The translations under genes and the position numbers were made by a program. This document shows, one piece after another, positions 1 through 64,000 of a stretch of DNA of 64,000 bases. The DNA lies in the NCBI GenBank assembly GCA_964514555.1, contig CAZERM010000002.1, forward strand, positions 4,761-68,760. Direction: 5' to 3'. Source of the DNA: an uncultured Lachnospiraceae bacterium. GTDB lineage: Bacteria; Bacillota; Clostridia; Oscillospirales; CAG-272. Each line of letters opens with the position of its first letter. Positions within the stretch are counted from its first letter, which is position 1. The notes below the pieces were generated by a model. It made no database searches and was not told the origin of the DNA. It saw nothing but the letters and a program-made list of their open reading frames with translations.

Positions 1-119
1 AACGCGGACCGCAGCTTTTTGCTTTCGTCCGCTCGGCAACTCCCCGTCCAAACGGCACTTTACGCCCGTGTTTTTACTCTTTTGTTAAAATTTATTTCGC
101 ATTTTTATGCGATATGGTA

Positions 120-1150: not shown

Positions 1151-1711
1151 TTATATTTTGCGCTTATATACCATCGGTGAAAGGGCACGCATCGGATTTT
1201 GATAAAGCTTTACAATCGCTTCGCCCTGCGCCATCTCTGAAAAAGCGTTGCAAAGTTTCGAGGTCATCTCCCTATCGTCCTTTGCCGTAACGATATATCG
1301 ACCGCAGAGCATAAAGGCGATGCTGTCCGCAGGGTCGCACGGCGCCCAATCATATTCTTCGCACATATTTTGGTAAAGCTTTTTCGCCGCATCCTCGCTT
1401 TGCATAAAGATAACGCAAAGCGAATTTCCCAAGGCAAGCTCCGAACTGTAAAGCGCCGTCGCTTCTTCCACATCATTGTGGAAAACTTGCTCGGAAATGC
1501 CGAAGATATATGAGTTTTCCGCACTTATGCGCTCCTCGGGTGCGGATGCGGCATCTTTTCCTGCCATTGAATATATGCGAAAAGCGATATCGCGCGCACT
1601 TCCCTCTATATTCTCCTTTTGCATCTGTTTACAGCAGGAGACGAAAGTGAGCAATGATATCGCCATGAGCACCGCCAAGAGCGCATATTTTTTATTATCG
1701 TTATTAAACAA
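1151..1711 (-). CDS. Putative lipoprotein of unknown function (possibly DUF4358-like)
   Basis: 186-aa ORF with an N-terminal signal peptide ending in LLTFVSCC (lipobox-like). No catalytic motif recognised. Confidence 0.6.
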   Translation of the reverse strand: MFNNDNKKYALLAVLMAISLLTFVSCCKQMQKENIEGSARDIAFRIYSMAGKDAASAPEERISAENSYIFGISEQVFHNDVEEATALYSSELALGNSLCVIFMQSEDAAKKLYQNMCEEYDWAPCDPADSIAFMLCGRYIVTAKDDREMTSKLCNAFSEMAQGEAIVKLYQNPMRALSPMVYKRKI

Positions 1712-1785
1712 AAGAAAACACCTCCGTTTTAGGAAAATATCGTGTCCGTCAACATTAGTGTTTTACTTTTTTTATATTTTATGCT

Positions 1786-4326
1786 TTATTTGGCTTCATA
1801 CCATGTCTTGCCCATGCCGACTTCCGCGGAAAGCTTAACGGGGAGCGAGATCGCGCTCTCCATCTCTCTTACGAGGAGCGCTTTTACTTCCTCGGCGCAA
1901 GATTCGTTTGATTCTATGATAAGTTCGTCATGTACCTGCATGATGAGCTTTGCATCATAGCCGCCCTCGCGCAGTTTCTTTTCCACGTTTACCATGGCAA
2001 GCTTGATGATGTCGGCGGCGCTTCCCTGAATGGGGCTGTTCATCGCAACACGCTCGCCGAAGGAAACTTCCGTTTTCTTTTTGGAGAAAAGCTCTTTGAT
2101 ATATCTTCTTCTGCCCAAAAGCGTTGTAACGAAACCATCTCTCTTTGCCTGCTCCACGATATCGGAAAGGTATTTTTCAACCAACGGATAAGTTTTCATA
2201 TATCCTGCGATATATTCTTTTGCCGCCGCAACGGATGTGTGCAGATCCTCGGAAAGGGAGAAAGCGCCCATGCCGTAAACTATACCGAAGTTTATCGCTT
2301 TTGCTCTCTTACGAAGCTCCACGGTAACTTCCTCGGCGGAAACACCGAAAACTTTCATCGCCGTTGATGTGTGTATATCGGCTCCGTCGGAGAATGCGGA
2401 TATCATAGACTCATCGCCCGAGATAGCCGCCAAAAGGCGAAGCTCTATCTGCGAATAGTCCGCATCGATAAGCACATATCCGTCTTTCTGCGCCGCAAAG
2501 AATTTTCTCATCTCTCTGCCAAGCTCAGTTTTTATCGGGATATTCTGAAGGTTCGGCTCCGTGGAAGAAAGTCTGCCAGTTGCGGTGAGCGCCTGCTTAA
2601 AGGATGTGTGTACTCTGCCGTTGCCGTCAGCCGCCGCCAAGAGTCCGTCTGCGTAAGTGCTTTTAAGCTTTGCCACCTTGCGATATTCGAGTATCTCGCC
2701 GATTATGGGGTGGTAGGGGCGAAGCTTTTCCATAACGTCCGCATCGGTCGAATATCCGCTCTTTGTCTTTTTTACAACGGGAAGACCCAAAACATCAAAA
2801 AGTATATGACCGAGCTGTTTTGTTGATTTGATATTGAACTCCTCACCTGCAAGAGCATATATCTTTTCGCCGTGTTCGTCTATCATCTTCGAAAGCTTGA
2901 CGGAAAAATCCTCAAGTTCCGTTGTGTTCACAAAGAAGCCTTCCTTTTCCATGTTAAAAAGCACTCTTGCCAACGGAAATTCTATATTTTCGTAAAGCTC
3001 ACGCTGATTTGTTTTTTCAAGTTCTTTTTCTATCTCCAAATAAAGTGCATATATGCAGGAAACTTTTTCTTCGTTCGTTTCGCAAACATCACTGAGTACG
3101 CGCGCGGCAAGTTTTTCGAGCGAAAAATCATTTTCCGAAACAGCCGCAACATAGCCCATGAGCATTATATCGTCGGTGCAAGCGGCAAAACCGCAATTTT
3201 TCGCATCGAGCGTATGATATGCCGCTTTCGCATCGTGCACGATAAATGAATATGATAAATCATCAAAGTAAGGGAGCGCATTTTCAAACGTATCGGTGAA
3301 CACCTTTTCGCCGTCGCAGAAATATACGACCTCCGCTTCCGTATCGAACGATACGGCGCATTTTTTGCCCTTTTCCAAAAGTTTTACGCCGCCCTCGCAA
3401 ATAGTAATGCTCTTCTTTTTCACTTCGATTTCGGTCGTGCCGTCTTCGGAAGGTTCGATCTCATCCTCGCCGCAGAATTTTTTGATGAATTTAGTAAATT
3501 CCAAGCGAGTGAAAAGCTCGGTAAGCTTCTTTTTATCCGCGCCCGTATAGCGGAACGCTTCTATATCGCATCCGAGGTCTACATCGCATTTTATCTTTGC
3601 TAAAAATTGCGACATATAAGCCATGTCCTTGCCGTCGATGATCTTCGCTTTTGCGGAGGGAGCTATCTTTTTGTTTTCTATATCGTCATAAACACCGTCA
3701 AGACTGCCGTATTCCGATATAAGTTTGAACGCGGTCTTTTCGCCGATGCCCTTTACACCGGGTATATTATCCGAGCTATCGCCCATGAGCGCTTTTACAT
3801 CGACAAATTGGCTCGGCAAAACACCGTATTTTTCGTTGAAAGCCTTCGTATCAAAAAGTATCGGTTCGTTGTTTGTCGCAAGGATTATATTAGTGCGGTC
3901 CGTGATAAGCTGAAGCGAGTCTCTGTCTCCCGTGAGGATGTATACCTGCGTATCGCCCTCCGCTTCGCCCATTGCGGCAAGTGTGCCGAGAAGGTCGTCC
4001 GCTTCAAATCCCTCTTTTTCTATGCAATGTGCGCCGAGCGCAGAAAGACATTCCACGGCATAAGGGCGCTGAACGGCAAGCTCTTCGGGCATACCGTGGC
4101 GATTAGCCTTATATTCCGTGTAAGCCTTGTGGCGGAAAGTCGGCGCTTTTAAATCAAAAGCCACAATAAAATAATCCGGGCGGATATCTTCGAAATGACG
4201 ATTTATAATGTTTATCATTCCGTAAACCGCGTTCGTGGGCAGTCCGTCCACCGTGGTGAGCGCACGCACACCGTAAAAAGCACGGTTGAGTATCGAGTTT
4301 CCGTCTACGGCAAGAAGTTTTTTCAT
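1786..4326 (-). CDS. polA: DNA polymerase I
   Basis: 846 aa. N-terminal 5'-nuclease region (MKKLLAVDGNSILNRAFYG) and C-terminal family A polymerase motifs (DYSQIELRLLA, QVHDELIIE). Confidence 0.97.
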   Translation of the reverse strand: MKKLLAVDGNSILNRAFYGVRALTTVDGLPTNAVYGMINIINRHFEDIRPDYFIVAFDLKAPTFRHKAYTEYKANRHGMPEELAVQRPYAVECLSALGAHCIEKEGFEADDLLGTLAAMGEAEGDTQVYILTGDRDSLQLITDRTNIILATNNEPILFDTKAFNEKYGVLPSQFVDVKALMGDSSDNIPGVKGIGEKTAFKLISEYGSLDGVYDDIENKKIAPSAKAKIIDGKDMAYMSQFLAKIKCDVDLGCDIEAFRYTGADKKKLTELFTRLEFTKFIKKFCGEDEIEPSEDGTTEIEVKKKSITICEGGVKLLEKGKKCAVSFDTEAEVVYFCDGEKVFTDTFENALPYFDDLSYSFIVHDAKAAYHTLDAKNCGFAACTDDIMLMGYVAAVSENDFSLEKLAARVLSDVCETNEEKVSCIYALYLEIEKELEKTNQRELYENIEFPLARVLFNMEKEGFFVNTTELEDFSVKLSKMIDEHGEKIYALAGEEFNIKSTKQLGHILFDVLGLPVVKKTKSGYSTDADVMEKLRPYHPIIGEILEYRKVAKLKSTYADGLLAAADGNGRVHTSFKQALTATGRLSSTEPNLQNIPIKTELGREMRKFFAAQKDGYVLIDADYSQIELRLLAAISGDESMISAFSDGADIHTSTAMKVFGVSAEEVTVELRKRAKAINFGIVYGMGAFSLSEDLHTSVAAAKEYIAGYMKTYPLVEKYLSDIVEQAKRDGFVTTLLGRRRYIKELFSKKKTEVSFGERVAMNSPIQGSAADIIKLAMVNVEKKLREGGYDAKLIMQVHDELIIESNESCAEEVKALLVREMESAISLPVKLSAEVGMGKTWYEAK

Positions 4327-4388
4327 AAATTTTCCCCTCCAATGGAGTATTCAGATTTTATAACATATTTATATTACCACAGTATCGT

Positions 4389-4428
4389 AAAAAAAGCAAA
4401 TCCGCTTTTCTTTTCGTGAAAAGCGGAT
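4389..4428 (-). terminator. Rho-independent terminator downstream of the small lipoprotein ORF
   Basis: Stem ATCCGCTTTT/AAAAGCGGAT (4400-4428), followed on the minus strand by a T-run (plus-strand A-run 4389-4396). Confidence 0.7.
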
Positions 4429-4435
4429 ATTTTTA

Positions 4436-4708
4436 TTAAGCAACCGAATCCAAAGGTGCAGTCTGGGGAATTACATATGTGTCAAGGTCATCGGGGAAGT
4501 TGACCTTGACATCTTCCCCGATGGTCTTGTAATCGAGCTCTATTGTATAATCGAGATATACGTCGCCAACTACCATGTTGGATCCGATCTTCACGGTTAC
4601 ATCACCCTTTTTCGCCGCCTGTGCGTTTTCGATGGCTGTCATCATTTTTTCCTCGAGTGTAACTTTACCGCAGGAACAGCAAGCGAGCGCCGCCATGACG
4701 AACACCAA
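4436..4708 (-). CDS. Small putative lipoprotein, start codon uncertain
   Basis: 90-aa ORF starting at TTG with AALACCSCGK (lipobox-like). It has its own terminator and an upstream TGnTATAAT-like element, but no canonical start codon with an n-region. Confidence 0.35.
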   Translation of the reverse strand: MVFVMAALACCSCGKVTLEEKMMTAIENAQAAKKGDVTVKIGSNMVVGDVYLDYTIELDYKTIGEDVKVNFPDDLDTYVIPQTAPLDSVA

Positions 4709-4824
4709 AACATTTCTTTTTTTGTATTTAAAATTATATCACACGCACCAAATTTTATCAAGAAATACGGTAAGAATTAAAAAGACCGCGTTCTCTTTTG
4801 CGAGAACGCGGTCCGTTTTCAAGA

Positions 4825-5571
4825 TCAGTCAACAAATGTGAACTCGATCGTTTTGTACTGGGAAAGGAAAATGTTTTTAAGAGTCTTCTCATCATTGAAG
4901 CGAGAAGGCATCGTTACCTTTTCAAGAGATGTGCAGTTGGAGAAAGCTTCTACGCCGATCTCCGTAACACCTGCGGGAATAACGAGTTCTTTAAGATTTT
5001 TAAGTCCCCAGAATGTTGTCTTGCCGATCGTTTTAAGAGTAGAGGGGAGTTCGAGCGATTCGATAGCGCTGCAACCGAAGAATGCGATATCACCGATGCT
5101 CTCAACGCCTTCGCCGATGGAAACAGCCGTAAGACCTGTGCAGAGCTGGAAAGCACCTTCTTCAACCTTCTTTGTCTTGCCACCCATTACAACGAGAGAT
5201 TCAACGCTGTAGTTATACTCGCCGCAAACCTTGTAACCGGGGCCGACACCAACGCTGTAAACAGTGTAGCTTGCGCCTTTTTCGTCAACATATGTGTCGC
5301 CGATAACGAGGTTTTTGATGTTATCTTTAAGTTCTTTGATAGCGATCATGTTGTCTGTGGATGATGTTACGAGTTCAAATTCGATAGATCCCGGAGTGAG
5401 GTTGCTTTCAATAGCAGGAACTACTGTTCCGCCTGTTGTTTCGCCGTCTGATGTTGTTGTATCAGAAGTAGTAGCCAAGCTTCCCGTCGTTGTATCGCCC
5501 TTACCACCGCAAGAAGCAAGCGCAAAAACAAGGAACGTTGTTGCCAAAAGCAAAGAAATAACTTTTTTCAT
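4825..5571 (-). CDS. Leucine-rich repeat (BspA-type) surface lipoprotein
   Basis: 248 aa with signal peptide and lipobox (FALASCGG), a T/S-rich linker, and repeated AFxxCxxLxxVxIxxxVxxIG LRR units. Confidence 0.8.
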   Translation of the reverse strand: MKKVISLLLATTFLVFALASCGGKGDTTTGSLATTSDTTTSDGETTGGTVVPAIESNLTPGSIEFELVTSSTDNMIAIKELKDNIKNLVIGDTYVDEKGASYTVYSVGVGPGYKVCGEYNYSVESLVVMGGKTKKVEEGAFQLCTGLTAVSIGEGVESIGDIAFFGCSAIESLELPSTLKTIGKTTFWGLKNLKELVIPAGVTEIGVEAFSNCTSLEKVTMPSRFNDEKTLKNIFLSQYKTIEFTFVD

Positions 5572-53445: not shown

Positions 53446-56400
53446 TTATTTTGTGATGAAAGAGTTGATGAATACTGTGTATGTCTGTGTAGCGTAATCG
53501 TAGTAGTATGTGAATTCAGGGTATACGATTGCGGATTCAGCAACACCACTTGTGATCTGTGTGATCTTGTACTGGTAGAGCTTGGAGTTCTGAACATCAG
53601 CTGTCCAGTAGATGTCATTCATGTTGTTCTTGAATGCTTCGCAAGCTGTTTCATAGTTCTTCTGGCAAAGTTCAACAAGTGCAAATGCTTTGTTGATTTC
53701 AGAAATTGTAGCGTTGGATGTGATAAGATCGTTGTATTTAGCAACAGCGAGGTTAAGCATACCAGCAGGTGTGTACTCAGCCAACATGTTGTAGAAGAGG
53801 TCGAGTTTACCTGTATTTACTATGTCTTTCTTGATGCTTGCAATGCCGTCACTCTTTGTCCAGTCATAGTAGTAGAAATTCTTGGAGTTGCTGAGGTTGT
53901 TTTCGCACCATGCAGCGAATGTGCCCTTGGAGGAGTTGAAGTCGTGAGGCATACCAGCTTTTTCAGACTGGAACATTACTTCGTACATTGTTGTAGGAAG
54001 TGCATGAGATACTGTCTGAGCTGTAGCTTCGTTGAGTGTGTTGCCTTCGTAATCGAAGTAAACAAACTTGAAGTTGAGGTTTGTGATATCCTGGTTAGCG
54101 TTACCGTTTACAGTAGCGATGATGGACTTAGGAGTTACGTTTGTAATTTCCATTGTGCCGAACTGACCAAGAACTGTGCCTGTAGCAAGTTTTGTAGAAT
54201 CGATTGCGTAGTTTGTCTCGTTCATGATAGAGCTCTTATATGTGAGCTTGTTAGCCTTAACGATCCAGTGTGCTTCGTTGTTTGTCCATGAGTTTGTGCC
54301 GTTGGGCAACTGAATTACACCACGACCGAAGCCGTACTGGTCAACAGGACCAACGCCGAGACGGTTAACTGTTACTTCACCAAATACAGCGCCGAGATCC
54401 TGGAGGATTGCGTTGTTCTTTGTTGTGTCTACGAGGTAGAAGTGGCCAGCAGGAATTGTTACTGTATGGCCGTTGCTGGGATTAACGTAATCTGCAGCAT
54501 AGTTCCATGTAGAGTAGAAGTAGTTAAGTGTACCAACTTTTTCACCTGTTGTGATGTTGATAGCCTGCATAGAGGAGCTTACATAGTAGATGTCGCTACC
54601 TGTTGCAATGTAAGATGTTGTAAGAGAATCTGCGGGGAGGTAAACAATAGCCTTACCGTCGTCAACCTTGTAAGAAGGTGTTGTTGTGCCTTCGCCGGGG
54701 TTGATTACTTCGCTGTTAGAGCCAATTGTGTTTGTGCCACCAAATACTTTGATGTATTTTACGTAGCCTGTAGCTGCGTCAACTACATACTGGTAAGAGA
54801 GAACTGCGAGTTCTTTCTTTGCAGCGAGGAGCGCGCCAACTGTTGTTTCTGTGTATGTGTAGTCAAGATCTGTCTTAGAAGCTTTGATTGTTTCATCGGG
54901 TGTTACGATGATAACAGTTGTGTCTTCTTTAACGTTGAGTGTTTCAGCACCCTTGATCTCAAGTCTGTACCAACCGGGAACATACTTGTAGCCTTCACCC
55001 TTCTTATGAGCAGAGAATACTGTGTTAGAGGGGAGAGTTGTTGTGATATAGGATTTTGTGATACCTGCGAGCTGGTTGTTCATTGCTGCTGCAGTAACGT
55101 CTGTTCTGCTGCCTGCAACTTCTTCCATAGCTTCTGTTGTAACTACGAGTGTACCGTCTGCCTTTGTCTGGTATACGATGCCCTTATAGTCAAGAATTGT
55201 GTAAACAATGTTGTTAGCGTCAACGTAGTATCTTGTAATTGTTACGTTGCTGAGGTTGCCGATGTAACCGTTAGCATCGTTGAAGAAGTAACCGTAACCC
55301 TTTGTTGTGTCGAGGTTGCCGTTAGCATCATAGTATTTGTGTGTCTGGTATGCATAGATTTCTGCATATGTGGGGTTGATGATTGTTTCGTTTTCTTTGC
55401 CTGCTTCTGTCTTGTAAACTGCGAAGGGAGCAAGAACTTTTGTAGCGCCTGTAGCAGCTACGCCGCCGTCCATAACGGGCTGGAGTGTGTAAGACTTAGT
55501 ATAGTCTACAGCGAGTTTAGATACCTGTTTGTACTGTACCTGGTAGATGTTTGCAGGAGCTTTTTCGTAAGCAACTTTGATTACTTCGTCTGTAAGAGCG
55601 CCTGTTGTAGCATCTTTCTTATATTCTTTTGCAACTACTGTCCATGTGTAGTTTTCAGCGGAATATGCGTTGTAGTAGTTTGTAACTTCAGGGTTCTCGA
55701 GTGTGGGAACCATTGTTGTTGTCTGGTTTGTGTAAGCAGTGCCGTATGTTGTCTTAGCGTCAAAAATACGGTCTGTGATGTCGCCGGAGATCACAGCGTT
55801 GTTCCAAGCGGAACCTGTGCCGCTGATGAGGTAGTTGTTACCACCGTCGTTCTTAACCTGAACGTAGAGAACGTTTGTAGCGGAAGCTACATAGCCTACG
55901 CCGTAGCCTGCATAGTTTTCAGCTTCTGTGCCGGAAAGGAGACCTTTAGCAAAAAGTCTGTTAGCCATGAGCTGTGTTGTCCAGTCGTAAGCCAAAGAAA
56001 GGGAAGCAAGAACTGTTGCTGTATCCTTAGCTTTTGTGCCTGCGAGAGTTACTTTGAATTCGTTGTCGTTAGAAGCTTTTTCAACTTTTGTTACGAAACC
56101 TTCTTTAACGTCTGTAGATGTTGTAAGGTCTTTACCGTTGATGATGATAACGTTGTTGTTGCTATCATATGCAACTGTAACTGTCTTCTGAAGGAGAGAA
56201 GTGGGTTTGTTAGCTTCTGTTGCGGGGAAGTTGTTAGCGTTGTCGCCGTTTACATACTGGTTCTGGTATGTGTCGATAAGGAACTGGTACCAGTTGTAGA
56301 TGTTAACTGTGAAGGAAGAAGAAGATTCACCGATTGTGTATGTGAATGTTCTGTTGAATGTGCTGTTGTTAGCGAGCTTGTTGTATGCAGGAATGATAAG

Positions 56401-58329
56401 TTCTTTTTCTGCACCGGAAGCGTCCATGATTGTGATTCTGTAGTAATCAGCGATATCACCGATTGTCTGAACCTTTGTAACAACACCTGTAAGTGTTGTG
56501 AAGCCTGCGCCTGCAGCATCCTTAAGATCTACCTGTGTATAGTAAGGAAGAACTGTGGATGTAGCGTTGTTCATGAGAAGCGCTGTAAGACCGTTGTTAG
56601 CTGTCTCCATCTTTGTAGCATCGAATGCTGCACCTGAGGGAACATTAGCAACTGTCTGGTCATACTGAGATTCACCAACACGAAGAGCCTTCATGTTGAA
56701 GAAGATTGTTGTTGTCTGTTTGTTTGTGTTGCTATCGTTGATGATAGAACCGTCATGAACGAACTTAACTGTTGTCTTGTTCTGTGTCATGATGTCGTAG
56801 ATACCGTTGCCGTCTGTATCAGCGAATGTGAACTTCATCTGACCTTCAGCAATGTTTACGATGCTGTTGTAAACTGTTGCGATGTCTGCAGCAGAACCTG
56901 TAGCATTACGAACAACGAGAACGTTGTCTGTGCTTGCAGCTACGCAGTTGTTAGCAACATATACTTTACCGTCTGCGCCTTCTGTAGCGAGAACGTATGT
57001 TGTGCCTTTGAATGTGATCTTGTAAACTGTTACGTTTGCATTAGCAGCATTCGTTCTTGTTTCTGTGCCTGCTTTTGTGATAGCGAGAGCAGATTCGCTG
57101 TAGTAAGAGGGAAGTACAGGTGTAAGGTTAACTTTCTGTTCGTTAGCATTTGTTGTGTACTTCATTGTGTTGTACTGGTGGTTGTATTTGTAACCGCCGT
57201 TTTTACCGCACCAACCGTACTTGTAAACGAGGAAGGAGTCAACGATTACTGTGTTTTCGGACTTGATGGAGTTGATCTTAGCAGCGGATGTGATAACACC
57301 GTTTACAACATCAGCAGCAGCGTTGCCGTTGTAGGAAACTTTAACAGCTGTACCAACTGTGAAATCTCTTACGGAAACGTAGCCGTTGTCAACGTTGGAG
57401 TTACCTACGTTGTCTGTTGTTCTCTTTGTTGTGATAACTTTGTTAGCTGTTGTCTTATCGAGTGTGATAGTAGCAACTGTGTTAGCAGCAACTTTGATTT
57501 CGATTGTGATGCTGGAAACTTCGTCGTAATTGCCTGCGTTCTGAACGTCTGTAACGATACCGTAGTAAGAACGGTTAACTGTTGTGCCGTTGATTGTAGA
57601 GAAACGATCGGAGATAGTACCGGAAACACCGTTTGCGCCCTTATCGTATTCGACAGCTGTTTTGCCGTTTACAGCAGCATTCCAGAGAAGGTATGCAGCT
57701 TCGCCGTATGTAAGCTTAGCACCGTCGGAGAAGTCGCCGCAGTTAAGTTTGTATGTATCGTCGATTACGTTTACATCTCTCTGCTGTGCCCACCAGATAT
57801 ATGCAGCATATTCTGTTGTGCCGAATGTATCTTTGAAGTTATTAGTATTTTCGATGTATGTGGAGGAGAAATAGTTGCTGCCCTGGTCGCCGAATCTGGA
57901 GAGAAGGCGGATAACAACTACTGCTGCCTGACCGAGGATAAGGTTGTCGTTAGGTCCGAACTGGTAGTCGGGGCCTTCGTTGTAACCTTTAACGATACCG
58001 TTTGCTGTAGCGTAAGCGATAGCATAGGGGTTGTCGTCAGCTGTAACGTCGTCGTAACGTGTGATTGCTTGCTGACCCCAGATATCACCGTCGATGTCCT
58101 GGGAAAGGATCTTAGCAACCCAAAGTGTGAATGTTTTTCTGTTGATGCCAGTGCCGTTCATAGCAGCTGTAACATCGTCCTCTGTGAGTACGCCCCAAGA
58201 CTGGAGATCGTAAACGGCGTCAGCAAACCATGCCTGAGAGCCGTTGGAGAGGGCAGAAACGCTTGCAAATGTGCCGAGCATCATTACGAGTGCAAGAACA
58301 AGTGCAAGACTTCTTTTGAAGTTTTTCAT
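53446..58329 (-). CDS. Giant SLH-domain cell-wall-anchored protein (candidate S-layer protein)
   Basis: 1627 aa counted from ATG 58329 (CAGGAGG SD). It has a signal peptide (LGTFASVSALS) and about three N-terminal SLH-like repeats (FADAVYDLQSWGVL.., YDDVTADDNPYAIAYATANGIVKGY.., AAYIWWAQQRDV..). The remainder is T/N/A/V/Y-rich and Cys-poor. Codon bias is strong. Confidence 0.85.
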   Translation of the reverse strand: MKNFKRSLALVLALVMMLGTFASVSALSNGSQAWFADAVYDLQSWGVLTEDDVTAAMNGTGINRKTFTLWVAKILSQDIDGDIWGQQAITRYDDVTADDNPYAIAYATANGIVKGYNEGPDYQFGPNDNLILGQAAVVVIRLLSRFGDQGSNYFSSTYIENTNNFKDTFGTTEYAAYIWWAQQRDVNVIDDTYKLNCGDFSDGAKLTYGEAAYLLWNAAVNGKTAVEYDKGANGVSGTISDRFSTINGTTVNRSYYGIVTDVQNAGNYDEVSSITIEIKVAANTVATITLDKTTANKVITTKRTTDNVGNSNVDNGYVSVRDFTVGTAVKVSYNGNAAADVVNGVITSAAKINSIKSENTVIVDSFLVYKYGWCGKNGGYKYNHQYNTMKYTTNANEQKVNLTPVLPSYYSESALAITKAGTETRTNAANANVTVYKITFKGTTYVLATEGADGKVYVANNCVAASTDNVLVVRNATGSAADIATVYNSIVNIAEGQMKFTFADTDGNGIYDIMTQNKTTVKFVHDGSIINDSNTNKQTTTIFFNMKALRVGESQYDQTVANVPSGAAFDATKMETANNGLTALLMNNATSTVLPYYTQVDLKDAAGAGFTTLTGVVTKVQTIGDIADYYRITIMDASGAEKELIIPAYNKLANNSTFNRTFTYTIGESSSSFTVNIYNWYQFLIDTYQNQYVNGDNANNFPATEANKPTSLLQKTVTVAYDSNNNVIIINGKDLTTSTDVKEGFVTKVEKASNDNEFKVTLAGTKAKDTATVLASLSLAYDWTTQLMANRLFAKGLLSGTEAENYAGYGVGYVASATNVLYVQVKNDGGNNYLISGTGSAWNNAVISGDITDRIFDAKTTYGTAYTNQTTTMVPTLENPEVTNYYNAYSAENYTWTVVAKEYKKDATTGALTDEVIKVAYEKAPANIYQVQYKQVSKLAVDYTKSYTLQPVMDGGVAATGATKVLAPFAVYKTEAGKENETIINPTYAEIYAYQTHKYYDANGNLDTTKGYGYFFNDANGYIGNLSNVTITRYYVDANNIVYTILDYKGIVYQTKADGTLVVTTEAMEEVAGSRTDVTAAAMNNQLAGITKSYITTTLPSNTVFSAHKKGEGYKYVPGWYRLEIKGAETLNVKEDTTVIIVTPDETIKASKTDLDYTYTETTVGALLAAKKELAVLSYQYVVDAATGYVKYIKVFGGTNTIGSNSEVINPGEGTTTPSYKVDDGKAIVYLPADSLTTSYIATGSDIYYVSSSMQAINITTGEKVGTLNYFYSTWNYAADYVNPSNGHTVTIPAGHFYLVDTTKNNAILQDLGAVFGEVTVNRLGVGPVDQYGFGRGVIQLPNGTNSWTNNEAHWIVKANKLTYKSSIMNETNYAIDSTKLATGTVLGQFGTMEITNVTPKSIIATVNGNANQDITNLNFKFVYFDYEGNTLNEATAQTVSHALPTTMYEVMFQSEKAGMPHDFNSSKGTFAAWCENNLSNSKNFYYYDWTKSDGIASIKKDIVNTGKLDLFYNMLAEYTPAGMLNLAVAKYNDLITSNATISEINKAFALVELCQKNYETACEAFKNNMNDIYWTADVQNSKLYQYKITQITSGVAESAIVYPEFTYYYDYATQTYTVFINSFITK

Positions 58330-58387
58330 ATATGCCTCCTGAAAAATTGTGGTGAGTCTTTCGACCCAATTTTTATTTTGTGTAATT

Positions 58388-58416
58388 ATAATACTACATT
58401 TCAAGTGATTTTGCAA
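58388..58416 (-). promoter_or_regulatory. Predicted promoter of the SLH protein gene (TTGCAA-N17-TATTAT)
   Basis: On the minus strand, the -35 is at 58416-58411 and the -10 at 58393-58388, about 55 nt upstream of the ATG. Confidence 0.5.
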
Positions 58417-58659: not shown

Positions 58660-60207
58660 TTATTTTGCAAAGTCTACCGCGCGGCTTTCGCGGATAACAT
58701 TTACCTTGATCTGACCCGGGTATTCAAGCTCTGCTTCGATCTTCTTAACGATCTCGCGAGCAACGACGATCATCTGGTCATCGTTTACGTGTTCGGGTTT
58801 GACCATTATGCGGATCTCTCTGCCCGCCTGGATAGCATAAGATTTTTCAACACCGGGGAAGCTGTTGGAGATCTCTTCGAGCTTCTGCAAGCGTTTGATG
58901 TAATTGTCAAGGTCTTCTCTGCGTGCGCCGGGACGAGCCGCGGAGATAGCGTCTGCCGCCGCAACGAGTACCGCGATAACTGTCTGCGGTTCAACGTCGC
59001 CGTGGTGCGCTTCTATAGCGTGAACTATTTCTTTGTTTTCCTTGAACTTACGAGCGATCTCAACGCCTATCTGAACGTGAGAGCCTTCTACTTCTTGAGT
59101 AAGGGATTTACCTATATCATGGAGCAAGCCTGCGCGTTTTGCGAGCGTGCTGTCCATACCGAGCTCATTTGCGAGCATACCTGCGATATGTGCCACTTCG
59201 ATAGAGTGCATAAGCACGTTCTGACCGTAGCTGGTACGATATTTAAGTCTGCCCAAGAACTTGATGAGGTCGGGGTTAAGACCGTTTACGCCTGTTTCCA
59301 TAGCGGCTTCTTCACCTGCGCGTTTGATAGAAAGATCTACCTCGCGGCGAGATTTTTCAACAGTTTCTTCAATGCGCGTGGGGTGGATCCTACCGTCGGA
59401 GATAAGTTTTTCAAGTGTAAGTCTTGCAACCTCGCGGCGGATGGGGTCGAAGCAGGAAAGAGTGATGGCTTCAGGTGTATCATCTATAATAAGGTCAACG
59501 CCCGTGAGCGTTTCGATCTTATGGATGTTACGGCCTTCTCTACCGATGATCCTACCCTTCATTTCGTCGGAGGGGAGCGCTACGACGGAAACCGTCGTTT
59601 CGGATACTTGATCCGAAGCAAGGCGCTGTATTGCGAGCGAGATGATGTTTCTCGCTTTTTCCTCTGCATTGTCATGCAATTCGTTTTCGATCTGTTTAAG
59701 CTTTGCCGCCGCTTCGTGCTTTGCTTCGCCCTCTATCTGAGAAACAAGCTCTGCCTTTGCGGTTTCAGCCGTATAACCCGAGATCTCTTCGAGTTTTGCC
59801 TGAGCGTCAGATTTTTTCTGTTCCAACTCTTCGCGAAGAATATCGTTATCCTTAATCTTCTGCGCGAGCTGTTCTTCACGTCTTTCATAATTTTCGAGCT
59901 TTCTGTCAAGAGTCTCCTCTTTGGCGAGTGCTCGGTTTTCAAGTCTGATAACTTCCTGTCTGCGTTCCTTGTTTTCGCGGTCTGCTTCTGTTTTAGCTTT
60001 GAGGATATCCTCTTTTGCTTCAACGAGCATCTCTTTGCGTTTGGATTCAGCAGCGATAACAGCCTCGTCCATTATCTTCTGTGCGTGAGCCTCCGCGGAA
60101 GATATGGCAGCTTCAGCCGTTTTCTTTCTTATGGTGTAGCCAATAAGCACGCCAACGGCGAGCATTACAACTCCGACCATAACAGGAATCAAAATGTCCC
60201 ATATCAA
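58660..60207 (-). CDS. rny: Ribonuclease Y
   Basis: N-terminal TM helix, a coiled-coil region, a KH domain (GREGRNI) and an HD domain (LLHDIGK). The start is placed at TTG 60207, about 10 nt after AGGAGG, because the track's GTG at 60219 abuts the SD. Confidence 0.95.
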
Positions 60208-60630
60208 AGTTTTTGACACCTCCTTCGTCTTTTTCCTTTAACTATAAGAGTCATTTAGCCTTCAGCATAAAGGGGTTTTTCCCCTTATACTCTTAATATT
60301 ATAAATTATATGGATAAAGAAGTCAATAACAGTTTAGAAAATAATTTTTCCACTTTTGCGATTTTGTGTAAAGAGCATATTTAAGTTTTAAAAGCGCACC
60401 TTTTTGTGTTCGATTTCATACGAACACTTGTTTATATTATTTTTCGTTTGCGGCAGATTTGGCACGAACATTTATTCCGAATCGTCAAAATGTATATACC
60501 ATCAATAAATTCGCGCAAATGTTCCACGTGAAACAAAAAACAGAAAATCGGCAAAGATTGTTACATCTCTGCCGACTTCCTGTAAATGATTTTGAATATA
60601 CTTACGCGAGACAAACTCACGGAAGTTTGC

Positions 60631-61392
60631 TTAATTATGAGTGCTGAGTTTGCTTCTCGATTCTCTCATACCGTCAAGGATGATATCCTTTGCCTTTGCG
60701 GCATCTGCCTTCGAAAGCGCCTCAACGCCTTCCAGCGGATACGGTATGCCAAGCTCCTTATATTTCATAACGCCCATCGTGTGATAAGGCAAAACATCAA
60801 GAGCTTTTATTCCCGTCAAAGTACCGAGAAAAAGTCCAAGCTCGTGCAGGTATTTCGGATCGTCCGTTATACCGGGAACGACAACGTGTCTTATCCAAAG
60901 AGGTATCTTTTTGTCGGAAATATATTTTGCAAAAGCAAGTATGCCTTTGTTGTCCTGCTTCGTAAGTTCACGGTGATGTTCAGGATCGATATGTTTGATA
61001 TCGAGCATGATAAGATCTGTATATTTCATAAGCTCATCAAGCTTTTTGATATACTCCGTGTTATCGGGATTATAAGTAATGCCCGATGTATCGATGCAGG
61101 TGTGGATGTTGTTCTTCTTCGCCAAGCGAAAAAGATCAAGCATGAAATCGATCTGCAAAAGCGGTTCGCCTCCAGTAACGGTCAAGCCGCCTTTGGCGTA
61201 AAACTCGCTGTTTTTGTTATACTCAGCAATAATCTGTTCAGCGGACATCTTTGTGCCTTTGCCGACCTCCCAAGTATCGGGATTATGGCAATATTTGCAA
61301 CGCATGGGACAACCCTGGGTGAACACTACAAAGCGCACACCCGGGCCGTCAACCGTACCAAAGCTTTCCGTTGAGTGAATATAACCTTCCAT
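60631..61392 (-). CDS. pflA: Pyruvate formate-lyase activating enzyme (radical SAM)
   Basis: 253 aa. N-terminus ESFGTVDGPGVRFVVFTQGCPMRCKYCHN contains the CxxxCxxC cluster. Confidence 0.95.
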   Translation of the reverse strand: MEGYIHSTESFGTVDGPGVRFVVFTQGCPMRCKYCHNPDTWEVGKGTKMSAEQIIAEYNKNSEFYAKGGLTVTGGEPLLQIDFMLDLFRLAKKNNIHTCIDTSGITYNPDNTEYIKKLDELMKYTDLIMLDIKHIDPEHHRELTKQDNKGILAFAKYISDKKIPLWIRHVVVPGITDDPKYLHELGLFLGTLTGIKALDVLPYHTMGVMKYKELGIPYPLEGVEALSKADAAKAKDIILDGMRESRSKLSTHN

Positions 61393-61418: not shown

Positions 61419-61661
61419 TTAGATCTGGTCGTGGAACGTTCTGGAAATAACTTCGTCCTGCTGTTCTTTTGTGAGCTTGATGAAGTTTACAGCATAACCA
61501 CTAACTCTTACTGTGAGCTGAGGATATTTTTCGGGGTGCTGCTGAGCGTCCAAAAGTGTTTCTTTTGTGAAAACGTTTACGTTGAGGTGATGACCGCCTT
61601 TTTTAGCGTAGCCGTCAAGGAGAGCTACGAGGTTATCGATCTGGTTCTGTGTTGCTGCCAT
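61419..61661 (-). CDS. Stand-alone glycyl-radical domain protein (detached PFL C-terminus, GrcA-like)
   Basis: 80 aa with GGHHLNVNV...[33 protein letters not shown], which is the glycine-radical signature RVSGYA. It has its own AGGAGG SD (reverse complement of 61672-61677). Confidence 0.88.
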
Positions 61662-61714
61662 AGGAAATTTACCTCCTGATTTATTTTATAAATTAAATAA
61701 ATTAAAAATTAGAA

Positions 61715-63823
61715 TTAGTCGTTGCTTTTGTCATCGAGACCTTCGAAAAGTGTGGGTGTAGAGCAAGCGCCGTTACCGCAATCAAGGTCAACTTCGATAT
61801 CGCCAGCGAAGATCTGATCATCTTTACCGAGAGCGCCGGGGATGATGGAGAATGTGTTGGAGATACCGTCCTGTGCGTCGATGAAGGGAAGTTTAGAAAC
61901 GGAAGAGAGGGATGCAACTGCACCGTGTGTATCACGTCTGTGCATGGGGTTAGCACCGGGAGCGAAAGCTTCGCCTTTCTTTCTGCCGTCAGGTGTGGAA
62001 CCTGTGTTCTTACCATATACAACGTTAGATGTAATTGTAAGAATAGATGTTGTGGGGATACCACCTCTGTATGTGTGGTTCTTTCTGATGTGTTCCATGA
62101 ATGTGTGAACGATCTCACGTGCGATAGAGTCAACTCTGTCGTCGTCGTTACCGTATTTCGGGAAGTCGCCTTCTACTTCGTAGTCAACTACGATGCCTTC
62201 TTCGTTGCGGATAGTCTTAACCTTCGCATATTTGATAGCGGAGAGAGAGTCAGCAACAACGGAGAGACCTGCGATACCTGTTGCGAACCAACGAGTAACG
62301 TTCTTGTCATGGAGAGCCATCTGGATCTTTTCGTAGCAATATTTGTCATGCATGTAGTGGATGATGTTGAGCGCATTTACGTAAACGCCTGCGAGCCATT
62401 CCATCATCTGGTCGAACTTGTGCATAACTTCGTTGTAATCGAGGTATTCAGATGTGATAGGTGTGTATTCGGGACCAACCTGTTTGCCTGTGATTTCGTC
62501 TTTACCGCCGTTGATAGCGTAAAGCATACATTTAGCAAGGTTTGCACGAGCGCCGAAGAACTGCATTTCTTTACCAACTCTCATGGAAGATACGCAGCAA
62601 GCGATAGCGTAGTCATCGCCGTGTGTAAATCTCATAAGGTCGTCGTTTTCGTACTGGATAGAAGATGTTTCAATAGATGTCTTAGCGCAGAATCTCTTGA
62701 AGTTTTCGGGAAGCTTTGTGGACCAAAGAACTGTGAGGTTAGGTTCAGGAGCAGCACCGAGGTTTTCGAGTGTGTGCAAGTAACGGTAGGACATCTTTGT
62801 AACCATATGACGGCCGTCAACTGCAACACCACCGATGGATTCTGTTACCCACTGAGGGTCGCCGGAGAAGAGTGCGTTGTATTCAGGTGTACGAGCGAAT
62901 TTGATAAGACGGAGCTTCATGATGAAGTGGTCAACAAATTCCTGGATCTCTTTTTCTGTGTATTTGCCGTCTGCAAGGTCTCTTTCAGCGTAGATATCGA
63001 TAAATGTGGATGTACGGCCGAGAGACATAGCAGCACCGTTCTGTTCCTTAACTGCAGCGAGGTAGCCGAAGTAGAGCCACTGGATAGCTTCTTTTACGTC
63101 TGTTGCGGGTTTGGAGATATCAAAGCCATAGGAAGCAGCCATCTGTTTGAGCTGTTCAAGAGCGCGGATCTGTTCGGAGAGCTCTTCTCTCTGGCGGATA
63201 ACCTGAGAGTACATAGCTGTACGAGTTGTTTCCTTCTGTTCTTTCTTGTCTTCGATAAGTCTGTCTACACCGTAGAGAGCTACACGGCGGTAGTCGCCGA
63301 TGATACGGCCACGGCCGTAAGCGTCAGGAAGACCTGTGATGATATGGCTGGAACGGCAAGCGCGCATTTCAGGTGTGTAAGCATCGAATACGCCTGCGTT
63401 ATGTGTTTTTCTGTGTGTTTCGAAGAAATCTTTTACTTCGGGGTCGAGTGTATAGCCGTTGTCCGCGCAAGCTTTTTCTGCCATACGGATACCACCGTAT
63501 ACATGGAGAGCGCGTTTGAAAGGTTTATCTGTCTGGAAGCCAACAATTTTTTCGATGTCTTTGTTGAGGTAACCGGGACCGTGAGCAGTGATAGATGTTA
63601 CAACCTTTGTGTCCATATCAAGAACACCGCCTGCTTCTCTTTCCTGCTTTGTAAGGTCCATTACCTGCGCCCAAAGTGCAGTTGTAGCTTCTGTGGGACC
63701 TTCAAGGAAGCTTTCGTCGCCATCATAGGGATGATAGTTATGTCTGATAAAGCTTCTTACGTTGATTTCGTTTGTCCAGGTTCCGGGTTCGAAACCTCTC
63801 CAACCTTCGTACATTCTGTTCAT
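61715..63823 (-). CDS. pflB: Formate C-acetyltransferase (pyruvate formate-lyase) body lacking the glycyl-radical domain
   Basis: 702 aa that is PFL-like throughout and keeps the catalytic Cys-Cys ([10 protein letters not shown]). Homology ends after ...[11 protein letters not shown], followed by a 33-aa unrelated tail and a stop. Confidence 0.93.
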
Positions 63824-64000
63824 TGTCGTGTACTCCTTTTTTATTTGGATTTTAATTTAATAGGAATTAAATTCTTATTCGCAAATATTATAACGCATTT
63901 TCGATTATATTGCAATAGATTTTAGATATGAATTTTTCCTTTTTTGTTTTTGCAATATCATCGACGATAGCTTTGTTTCAAAAGTAATAATCATTATCAC

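Follow-up and report, generated by a model that had tools for sequence, protein, structure and literature searches.

How can a pyruvate formate-lyase (PFL) work when the glycine that carries its radical is encoded by a different gene? Many of the Clostridia that dominate gut and rumen rely on PFL as their chief route from pyruvate to acetyl-CoA and formate, and its activity needs a glycyl radical beside a cysteine dyad. The question is raised by a locus in a stretch of 64,000 nucleotides from an uncultured Lachnospiraceae bacterium (GenBank assembly GCA_964514555.1, contig CAZERM010000002.1, positions 4,761 to 68,760 of the forward strand), hereafter called the window. Here a gene for a 702-amino acid PFL body without the radical loop is followed by a gene for an 80-amino acid protein that contains it, and then by the activase gene pflA. 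We conclude that the locus likely encodes an obligately two-subunit PFL, in which the small protein, a member of the GrcA3 family, would supply the radical in trans. The elements of the locus, in window coordinates, are the following.

61715 to 63823, minus strand: PFL catalytic body, 702 amino acids, without the glycyl-radical loop (the range includes the TAA stop at 61715-61717)
62594 to 62599, minus strand: catalytic pair Cys409-Cys410 in IACCVS, equivalent to E. coli C418/C419 (alignment to PDB 1h16 and position check)
61718 to 61816, minus strand: 33-residue C-terminal tail of the body, residues 670-702, after GALGKDD, kept across 53 loci with two open reading frames (ORFs)
within 61718 to 61816, minus strand: acidic amphipathic stretch of the tail, 11 residues, followed by the Cys motif
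61733 to 61780, minus strand: Cys motif C682-GNGA-C687-ST-P690-TLFEGLD697, a pattern that recurs in relatives
61662 to 61714, minus strand: intercistronic spacer, 53 nucleotides, AT-rich (sequence reading)
61672 to 61677, minus strand: AGGAGG, the Shine-Dalgarno site of grcA3, 10 nucleotides ahead of the ATG
61419 to 61661, minus strand: GrcA3, the 80-amino acid glycyl-radical subunit with RVSGYAV (Gly55 codon at 61497-61499)
60631 to 61392, minus strand: pflA, radical-SAM activase, 253 amino acids (TIGR02493), starting 26 nucleotides downstream of grcA3

An earlier note on this DNA had described the body with its tail and stop, the IACCVS motif, the AT-rich spacer with AGGAGG, the 80-amino acid ORF and the adjoining pflA, and each of these elements was recovered in its place.

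The two ORFs divide a single enzyme between them. The body is PFL-like from its N-terminus to a ten-residue stretch after which the tail begins. It passes the PFL equivalog model TIGR01255 (1107.7 bits against a cutoff of 994.2, model positions 2-665 of 744) and matches Pfam PFL-like at 2.4e-224, while the 80-amino acid ORF covers TIGR01255 positions 664-743. The 106 positions of Pfam Gly_radical are likewise divided, 1-50 falling on the body and 49-106 on the small ORF. In the alignment to E. coli PflB, the body reaches residue 681 and the small ORF corresponds to residues 683-756; homology therefore resumes where that of the body ends, as the earlier note had maintained, both in PflB (681 to 683) and in the model (665 to 664). 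The same alignment shows that the body keeps an 11-residue block, DPxWxTESIGG, AIACCVS and a ten-residue block. The pyruvate-site residues (E. coli R176, R435 and W333) are conserved in two segments of 21 and 11 residues when the body is aligned to 1h16. The RVSGYAV loop is not on the body polypeptide but on the separate 80-amino acid ORF. Complementary coverage by hidden Markov models (HMMs), a Shine-Dalgarno site and ATG of its own, and a start that is out of frame with the body all uphold the claim that the radical domain is a separately translated cistron.

The small ORF passes the NCBIfam model NF038360 for GrcA3 (168.2 bits against a cutoff of 158), with residues 4-80 aligned to model positions 2-78 of 78. 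It has the size of GrcA3, no N-terminal extension and an intact RVSGY radical site, and falls below the cutoffs for E. coli-type GrcA (TIGR04365, 91.9 against 170 bits) and for GrcA2 (NF008341, 104.7 against 145 bits). It adjoins a PFL body without radical domain both in the window and at nearly all split loci, which is a contextual trait that we derived in this analysis and that is not part of the NF038360 model text. Homologs of the 80-amino acid protein number in the thousands, the named ones being called GrcA, GrcA3 or "pyruvate-formate lyase", and identical or near-identical proteins in NCBI already carry the names GrcA or GrcA3. A search of a representative library with the same ORF returned mostly fragments of odd length, which say little on architecture. 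The product of pflA passes TIGR02493 (300.6 bits against a cutoff of 231.75).

What the body lacks is the last helix, the barrel strand beta-10, the Gly loop and the C-terminal helix, and GrcA3 holds exactly these elements. Since the neighbouring PFL carries no radical domain itself, the 80-amino acid protein would have to supply the radical in trans; and since the glycyl radical is needed near the Cys dyad, the enzyme would work only as a non-covalent complex of body and GrcA3. In this scheme the 702-amino acid large subunit would provide the catalytic barrel, the Cys409-Cys410 thiyl relay and the pyruvate-binding arginines. GrcA3, translated from its own strong ribosome-binding site, would contribute the missing elements, and PflA would abstract hydrogen from its Gly55. 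Once docked in the body, GrcA3 would produce a thiyl radical at the Cys pair in the manner of E. coli PFL. The acidic tail with its Cys motif, replaced in other lineages by a separate mini-protein derived from GrcA3, may be a third functional element. It would most likely hold, load or gate the non-covalent radical subunit, possibly via a metal or a redox-sensitive Cys pair.

Is the arrangement peculiar to this genome? The earlier note had suggested that relatives be searched for the two-cistron layout. In a scan of one genome per GTDB species with the small ORF we obtained 80 loci, of which 78 have a short stand-alone ORF and two are fused. Among the taxa of these loci are Acutalibacteraceae, Oscillospiraceae, Lachnospiraceae (Blautia, Dorea, Sellimonas), Ruminococcus and Erysipelotrichales, and the sampling also includes one spirochaete and one Gastranaerophilales metagenome-assembled genome (MAG); split-type loci occur in Lacrimispora and Ruminococcus flavefaciens as well. 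Sampling metagenome loci with the body alone, which favours neither architecture, returned 58 split loci out of 75, and the 17 classical fused genes were the most distant matches. The layout is thus widespread, and the tail is conserved with it. All of the closest 120 body homologs are truncated; they measure 696-722 amino acids except for two with assembly duplications, which end in the tail too. These two, P0271 and P0285 (805 and 821 amino acids), carry internal tandem duplications of 100-120 amino acids and are assembly artefacts rather than fused PFLs.

We then placed 111 distinct body cores on a neighbour-joining tree, a distance tree only. In 48 of 60 bootstraps (80%) the 12 fused PFLs of the classical type group as a single clan; all 97 split bodies lie on the opposite side, a topology that fits one old split event. 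The earlier note had proposed a local insertion of about 170 nucleotides; in the locus sampling and the tree, the split is instead an old feature of the whole clade. One relative, L040 (3841-6225, from a Treponemataceae MAG), encodes a continuous 794-amino acid PFL with an insert that contains Cys residues and a relic of the GrcA3 start (IMAAP...QIDNLV). A split gene that was later fused again would account for it, as would a MAG error.

To gauge selection we compared the window with 22 relatives, at which distance synonymous sites are saturated (proportion of synonymous differences, pS, 0.75-0.85). The ratio of nonsynonymous to synonymous proportions (pN/pS) is 0.11 (0.112) for the last 300 codons of the body core and about 0.16 for grcA3, a value inflated by two mis-registered pairs. 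Neither relaxed selection on either piece nor absence of the layout from relatives, which the earlier note had named as signs against its claim, was seen.

In 66 of 79 split loci, the window counted, the gene after grcA3 encodes a CxxxCxxC motif and was taken as pflA. The order is body, third ORF, grcA3, adhE ... focA in R. flavefaciens, and body, third ORF, grcA3, pflA, ferredoxin in a Lacrimispora-type contig, both of them settings of primary metabolism. L080 (3135-6243) has the variant order body (without the Cys motif), pflA, grcA3, and in L078 (6001-6243, a Gastranaerophilales MAG) grcA3 has no PFL body within 6 kb. In two Lachnospiraceae loci, L015 (7147-9690) and L022 (9149-11719), a second glycyl radical enzyme of 847-856 amino acids, with an RxxGY motif and PFL2-like size, lies a few kb downstream of the split operon.

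The explanation that best survives as an alternative is that GrcA3 serves only as a spare, like its E. coli counterpart. PFL activity would then come from a full-length enzyme encoded elsewhere in the genome, and the truncated body would be inactive or serve some other purpose. The NCBIfam name, "rad_fix_GrcA3 / autonomous glycyl radical cofactor", suggests that its curators see a repair part rather than an obligate subunit. The lone grcA3 of L078 and the phages that carry the small gene alone point the same way, and our search for a second PFL, which found none, covered the 64-kb window, the only stretch of the genome searched. Nevertheless, the body scores above the cutoff of the PFL equivalog, has lost none of the catalytic residues and shows strong purifying selection; body and grcA3 adjoin in almost all split loci across many families; the operon stands beside adhE and focA in R. 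flavefaciens; and the traits of E. coli-type GrcA, namely a 60-amino acid N-terminal region and a passing TIGR04365 score, are missing. We consider the spare-part explanation improbable.

Besides the NCBI name and the reach of the search for a second PFL, further points weigh against an obligate two-subunit enzyme with a functional tail. The fused genes L040 and L056 nest within the split clade. A few loci (L080, L043) have no Cys motif, which is thus not strictly indispensable. The AlphaFold2 model of the concatenated body and GrcA3 reached a mean predicted local distance difference test (pLDDT) score of 45, from an alignment of 86 rows that are 82-96% identical to the query, and did not place the tail. 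No experiments on a split PFL were found in the literature, and we infer assembly, radical transfer and activity in trans. A Foldseek search with the same low-confidence model was set aside, as it recovered E. coli PFL through its sequence only.

A second alternative is that a single fused polypeptide is still produced, through read-through of the stop codon, frameshifting, or removal of an intervening element such as an intron, an intein or a mobile insert. Its best support is L040, where the continuous ORF retains the former GrcA3 start within its insert. In the window, however, the start of grcA3 is out of frame with the body stop (offset 56 nucleotides), and additional stops occur in the body frame within the spacer. 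Among relatives, body-grcA3 spacers span -17 to 160 nucleotides, all three relative frames are found (23, 15 and 15 loci), and an SD-like site precedes grcA3 in 63 of 74 loci, which together indicate independent initiation of grcA3 and not recoding. At some loci a whole extra ORF, or pflA itself (L080), separates the two parts. The Rfam scan of the spacer detected no intron and no other RNA family, and no endonuclease or intein-like ORF is present at the locus. A fused product is accordingly very unlikely.

Finally, it is hardly credible that the split reflects an error of sequencing or assembly, or a mutation that recently made a pseudogene of a normally fused pflB: although the window comes from a metagenome-assembled genome and two database homologs (P0271, P0285) do carry assembly duplications, the same gene order, stop codon and identical 53-nucleotide spacer are found in eight independent assemblies from different samples, the same architecture recurs at 136 other loci with differing spacers and frames, the small ORF has its own Shine-Dalgarno site and ATG, and the tail is conserved and under selection. 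In exact look-ups, the 80-amino acid protein is recorded on 15 contigs and the 702-amino acid protein on none. Sequencing error, recoding and insertion of an intron or mobile element are effectively excluded.

If the two-subunit enzyme is genuine, what does the tail do? The earlier note had counted it as part of the proposed insert. Its first 30 codons after ALGK have a pN/pS of 0.135, and its design is shared: an acidic amphipathic segment x-F-x-G-D-h-x-h-x-h, then C-x(1-7)-C-x-x-P-[T/N], after which L-x-x-G-[L/I]-D and acidic residues usually come. Among the variants are EPDCACCEPN and clusters with more Cys. At 53 loci the Cys motif lies in the body tail and the spacer is short. At another 20 the tail has no Cys and the gap is 180-350 nucleotides; from 17 of these 20 we extracted a third ORF that bears the motif. 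Of the 53 body tails with Cys, 49 show the pattern C-x(1-7)-C-x-x-P-[T/N], as do all 17 third-ORF products that we examined, and one locus has the motif in neither tail nor third ORF. Judging from these substitution and motif patterns, the tail is a conserved Cys-motif module under purifying selection and not insertion debris.

The tail has no significant match in Pfam, NCBIfam or PDB. Homology to the disordered N-terminus of YfiD, with which it shares GDIE, was rejected, as hhalign gave a probability of 0.3% with a YfiD sequence entered by hand. The window tail has two cysteines and those of relatives two to five, a variation that makes a metal site or a redox switch plausible. Such a module is probably a docking or regulatory element, and any more specific role that we assign to the tail is tentative.

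Roughly one in four split loci (among them L027, L031, L032, L042, L061, L074-L077, L089 at 5001-5270 and L090 at 832-1038) has the third ORF, which encodes 55-89 amino acids between body and grcA3 and bears the motif at the C-terminal end. Its N-terminus, IDDLVAMLDQFMxxGGGHMNIxV, is homologous to the N-terminal helix and strand of GrcA3, as seen from the match to NF038360 positions 2-30 (E about 1e-4) and from hhalign against GrcA3 (94% probability, E 1e-7, 27 columns). The family counts about 570 members at E <= 1e-3, including proteins of Lacrimispora saccharolytica and R. flavefaciens, and all the named ones are hypothetical proteins. Beyond the similarity to the GrcA3 N-terminus it matches no Pfam or NCBIfam family and no PDB entry. 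His26, the second Cys and the Pro are invariant in an alignment of 100 sequences. AlphaFold2 modelling of one member, P0419, from 100 diverse rows gave a mean pLDDT of 57, too low for a fold to be read from it, and a single helix at residues 4-21. We also considered the third ORF as a degenerate whole radical domain and discarded the idea, since hhalign aligns only the N-terminal 27 columns and not the C-terminal half with the Gly loop. Two-ORF and three-ORF forms are interspersed in the tree, which implies several interconversions.

The split PFL could be a machine of three components, namely the body, an exchangeable 80-amino acid cartridge, and the Cys module, which is either the tail of the body or a protein by itself that descends from the N-terminal half of GrcA3. 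The module would occupy or guard the socket of the cartridge, and control its loading, retention or ejection by redox state or bound metal. We regard this as a possible but doubtful extension of the two-subunit enzyme. The docking, loading or gating role for the tail or third protein is suggested by the weak binding and activation of an engineered E. coli pair, described below.

Stand-alone copies of the small gene also occur in predicted phage genomes. We found GrcA3-type genes of 77-83 amino acids, 70-85% identical to that of the window, on twenty IMG/VR viral contigs (L172-L191), 19 of which have no PFL body motif within 4 kb. On two large contigs (L182 3979-4222, L186 3990-4222) the gene lies beside nrdD and nrdG, with T4-type RNA ligase and polynucleotide kinase nearby. 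The 80-amino acid ORF of the window matches phrog_1209 at 7.8e-31. PHROG 1209 and T4 Y06I are, like GrcA3, stand-alone glycyl-radical modules of the PFL type; the PHROG 1209 profile has 121 positions and matches only the C-terminal 62 residues, and the phage copies, unlike the grcA3 of the window, have no adjacent PFL body. Paralleling T4 Y06I, they hint at a small subunit able to function as a portable unit.

The flanks of the locus bear on its expression and comprise three further features.

63887 to 63932, minus strand: two overlapping sigma-70-like promoter candidates upstream of the body (consensus scan, 10/12 matches each, a pattern match only)
63833 to 63838, minus strand: AAGGAG, the Shine-Dalgarno site of the body gene (direct sequence reading)
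60540 to 60583, minus strand: terminator-like hairpin after pflA, with a 19-pair stem followed by a T-run

Promoter-like sites were found upstream of the body only and a strong terminator-like hairpin after pflA only, and so body, grcA3 and pflA look like one three-gene operon. A scan found no terminator-like site in the 53-nucleotide spacer, whose GC content is 15% compared with 46% across the window. Elsewhere in the window, a tetrahydrofolate (THF) riboswitch aptamer (RF01831, positions 1-83, minus strand) scores 60.2 bits against a gathering score of 36 and is cut by the window edge. A 1656-amino acid ORF (53446-58416, minus strand), directly downstream of RNase Y (58660-60219), begins with a hydrophobic segment that resembles a signal peptide. 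It has no Pfam match in the gene calls of matching contigs, and may be a cell-surface protein.

In the textbook picture of PFL, the activase pries the radical domain out of an 85-kDa protein, and oxygen destroys the whole enzyme. If the enzyme of this clade is always in two pieces, it falls outside that picture: the activase could act on a free 9-kDa substrate, and a damaged enzyme could be restored by exchange of a subunit. The site at which oxygen cuts PFL is the radical glycine (PMC13450708), so that here only the 9-kDa protein would be destroyed. It is reasonable to expect that the cleaved subunit could be replaced without new synthesis of the body, a benefit at which the phage copies of the small gene hint. 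Should the three-component arrangement hold as well, strict gut anaerobes would renew oxygen-killed PFL by swapping the 9-kDa part, and phages would exploit the same socket with their own cartridges. Annotation pipelines call the parts "formate C-acetyltransferase", "GrcA/GrcA3" and "hypothetical protein" and do not link them. Beyond the split, which databases already name, the conserved Cys module, the third ORF and the mechanism of assembly are the part of interest.

How does the locus compare with what is known? The window ORF is a full-length member of NF038360, whose name implies a repair part, yet its partner PFL has no radical domain. In our literature search the name GrcA3 was used in no paper found, the family existing as an annotation model only, and no description of a natively split PFL was found. 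A 2026 review of glycyl radical enzymes covers YfiD-type spare parts only and leaves a natively split PFL unmentioned (PMC13450708). The earlier note had known of no characterised split PFL. As far as papers go this still stands, but the GrcA3 model, named homologs and the PDB entries 38la and 38lb exist. The window locus is thus an ordinary member of a large class that databases have named and for which we found no paper.

Those two PDB entries (38lb, 739 amino acids; 38la, 687 amino acids), both "Formate acetyltransferase", are the closest solved structures, at 1166 and 1146 bits. 38lb is the exact 718-amino acid product of a split-type gene plus a tag. The gene lies on metagenome contig QWCU01000013.1 (L092), with the body at 1384-3540, an 80-amino acid grcA3 at 3583-3825 and pflA at 3850-4734, and its tail is Cys-rich (...GECDMCE...PDCACAAD...GCEDNK). 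The chain of 38la, another homolog, stops two residues past the ALGK equivalent. Both come from organisms other than that of the window and comprise body chains only; the PDB holds no GrcA3-type chain, and our literature search found no publication for either entry. Both are missing from a structure library frozen on 2026-04-08 and are therefore probably recent. The enzyme class is evidently under study by others.

The short Cys-conserved accessory subunits of other glycyl radical enzymes, benzylsuccinate synthase (BSS) beta and gamma and 4-hydroxyphenylacetate decarboxylase (HPAD) gamma, recall the Cys module (PMC13450708, PMC12590467). Each of these has four Cys that bind a [4Fe-4S] cluster, with the radical on the large subunit, whereas the window tail has two Cys. 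No sequence similarity of the tail and third-ORF family to the BSS or HPAD small subunits was detected in Pfam, NCBIfam or PDB.

The closest functional parallel is E. coli PflB with GrcA/YfiD, a small homolog of the PFL C-terminus that carries RVSGYAV, is activated by the activase and completes the active site (PMC8683613, PMC13450708). GrcA3 resembles YfiD residues 68-125 and additionally contains the preceding helix (E. coli 683-695). E. coli PflB, however, is full length (759 amino acids) and GrcA acts after damage only, while the body described here is natively truncated and ends in a Cys-motif tail; and the disordered 60-amino acid N-terminal region that E. coli GrcA needs for binding is missing from GrcA3. 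Closer still in topology is the engineered E. coli pair of PFL(1-695) and YfiD, in which a small protein completes a barrel without strand beta-10 and Gly loop. This pair has wild-type activity once activated (Andorfer et al. 2021, PMC8683613), which makes the chemistry in trans feasible. It shows no measurable binding and a 32-fold lower radical installation (PMC8683613), which fits the need for an additional docking element. The natural split differs from it in a cut about 15 residues earlier and in the addition of a conserved tail or third protein, and these additions may show how an engineered truncated PFL could bind its radical part tightly.

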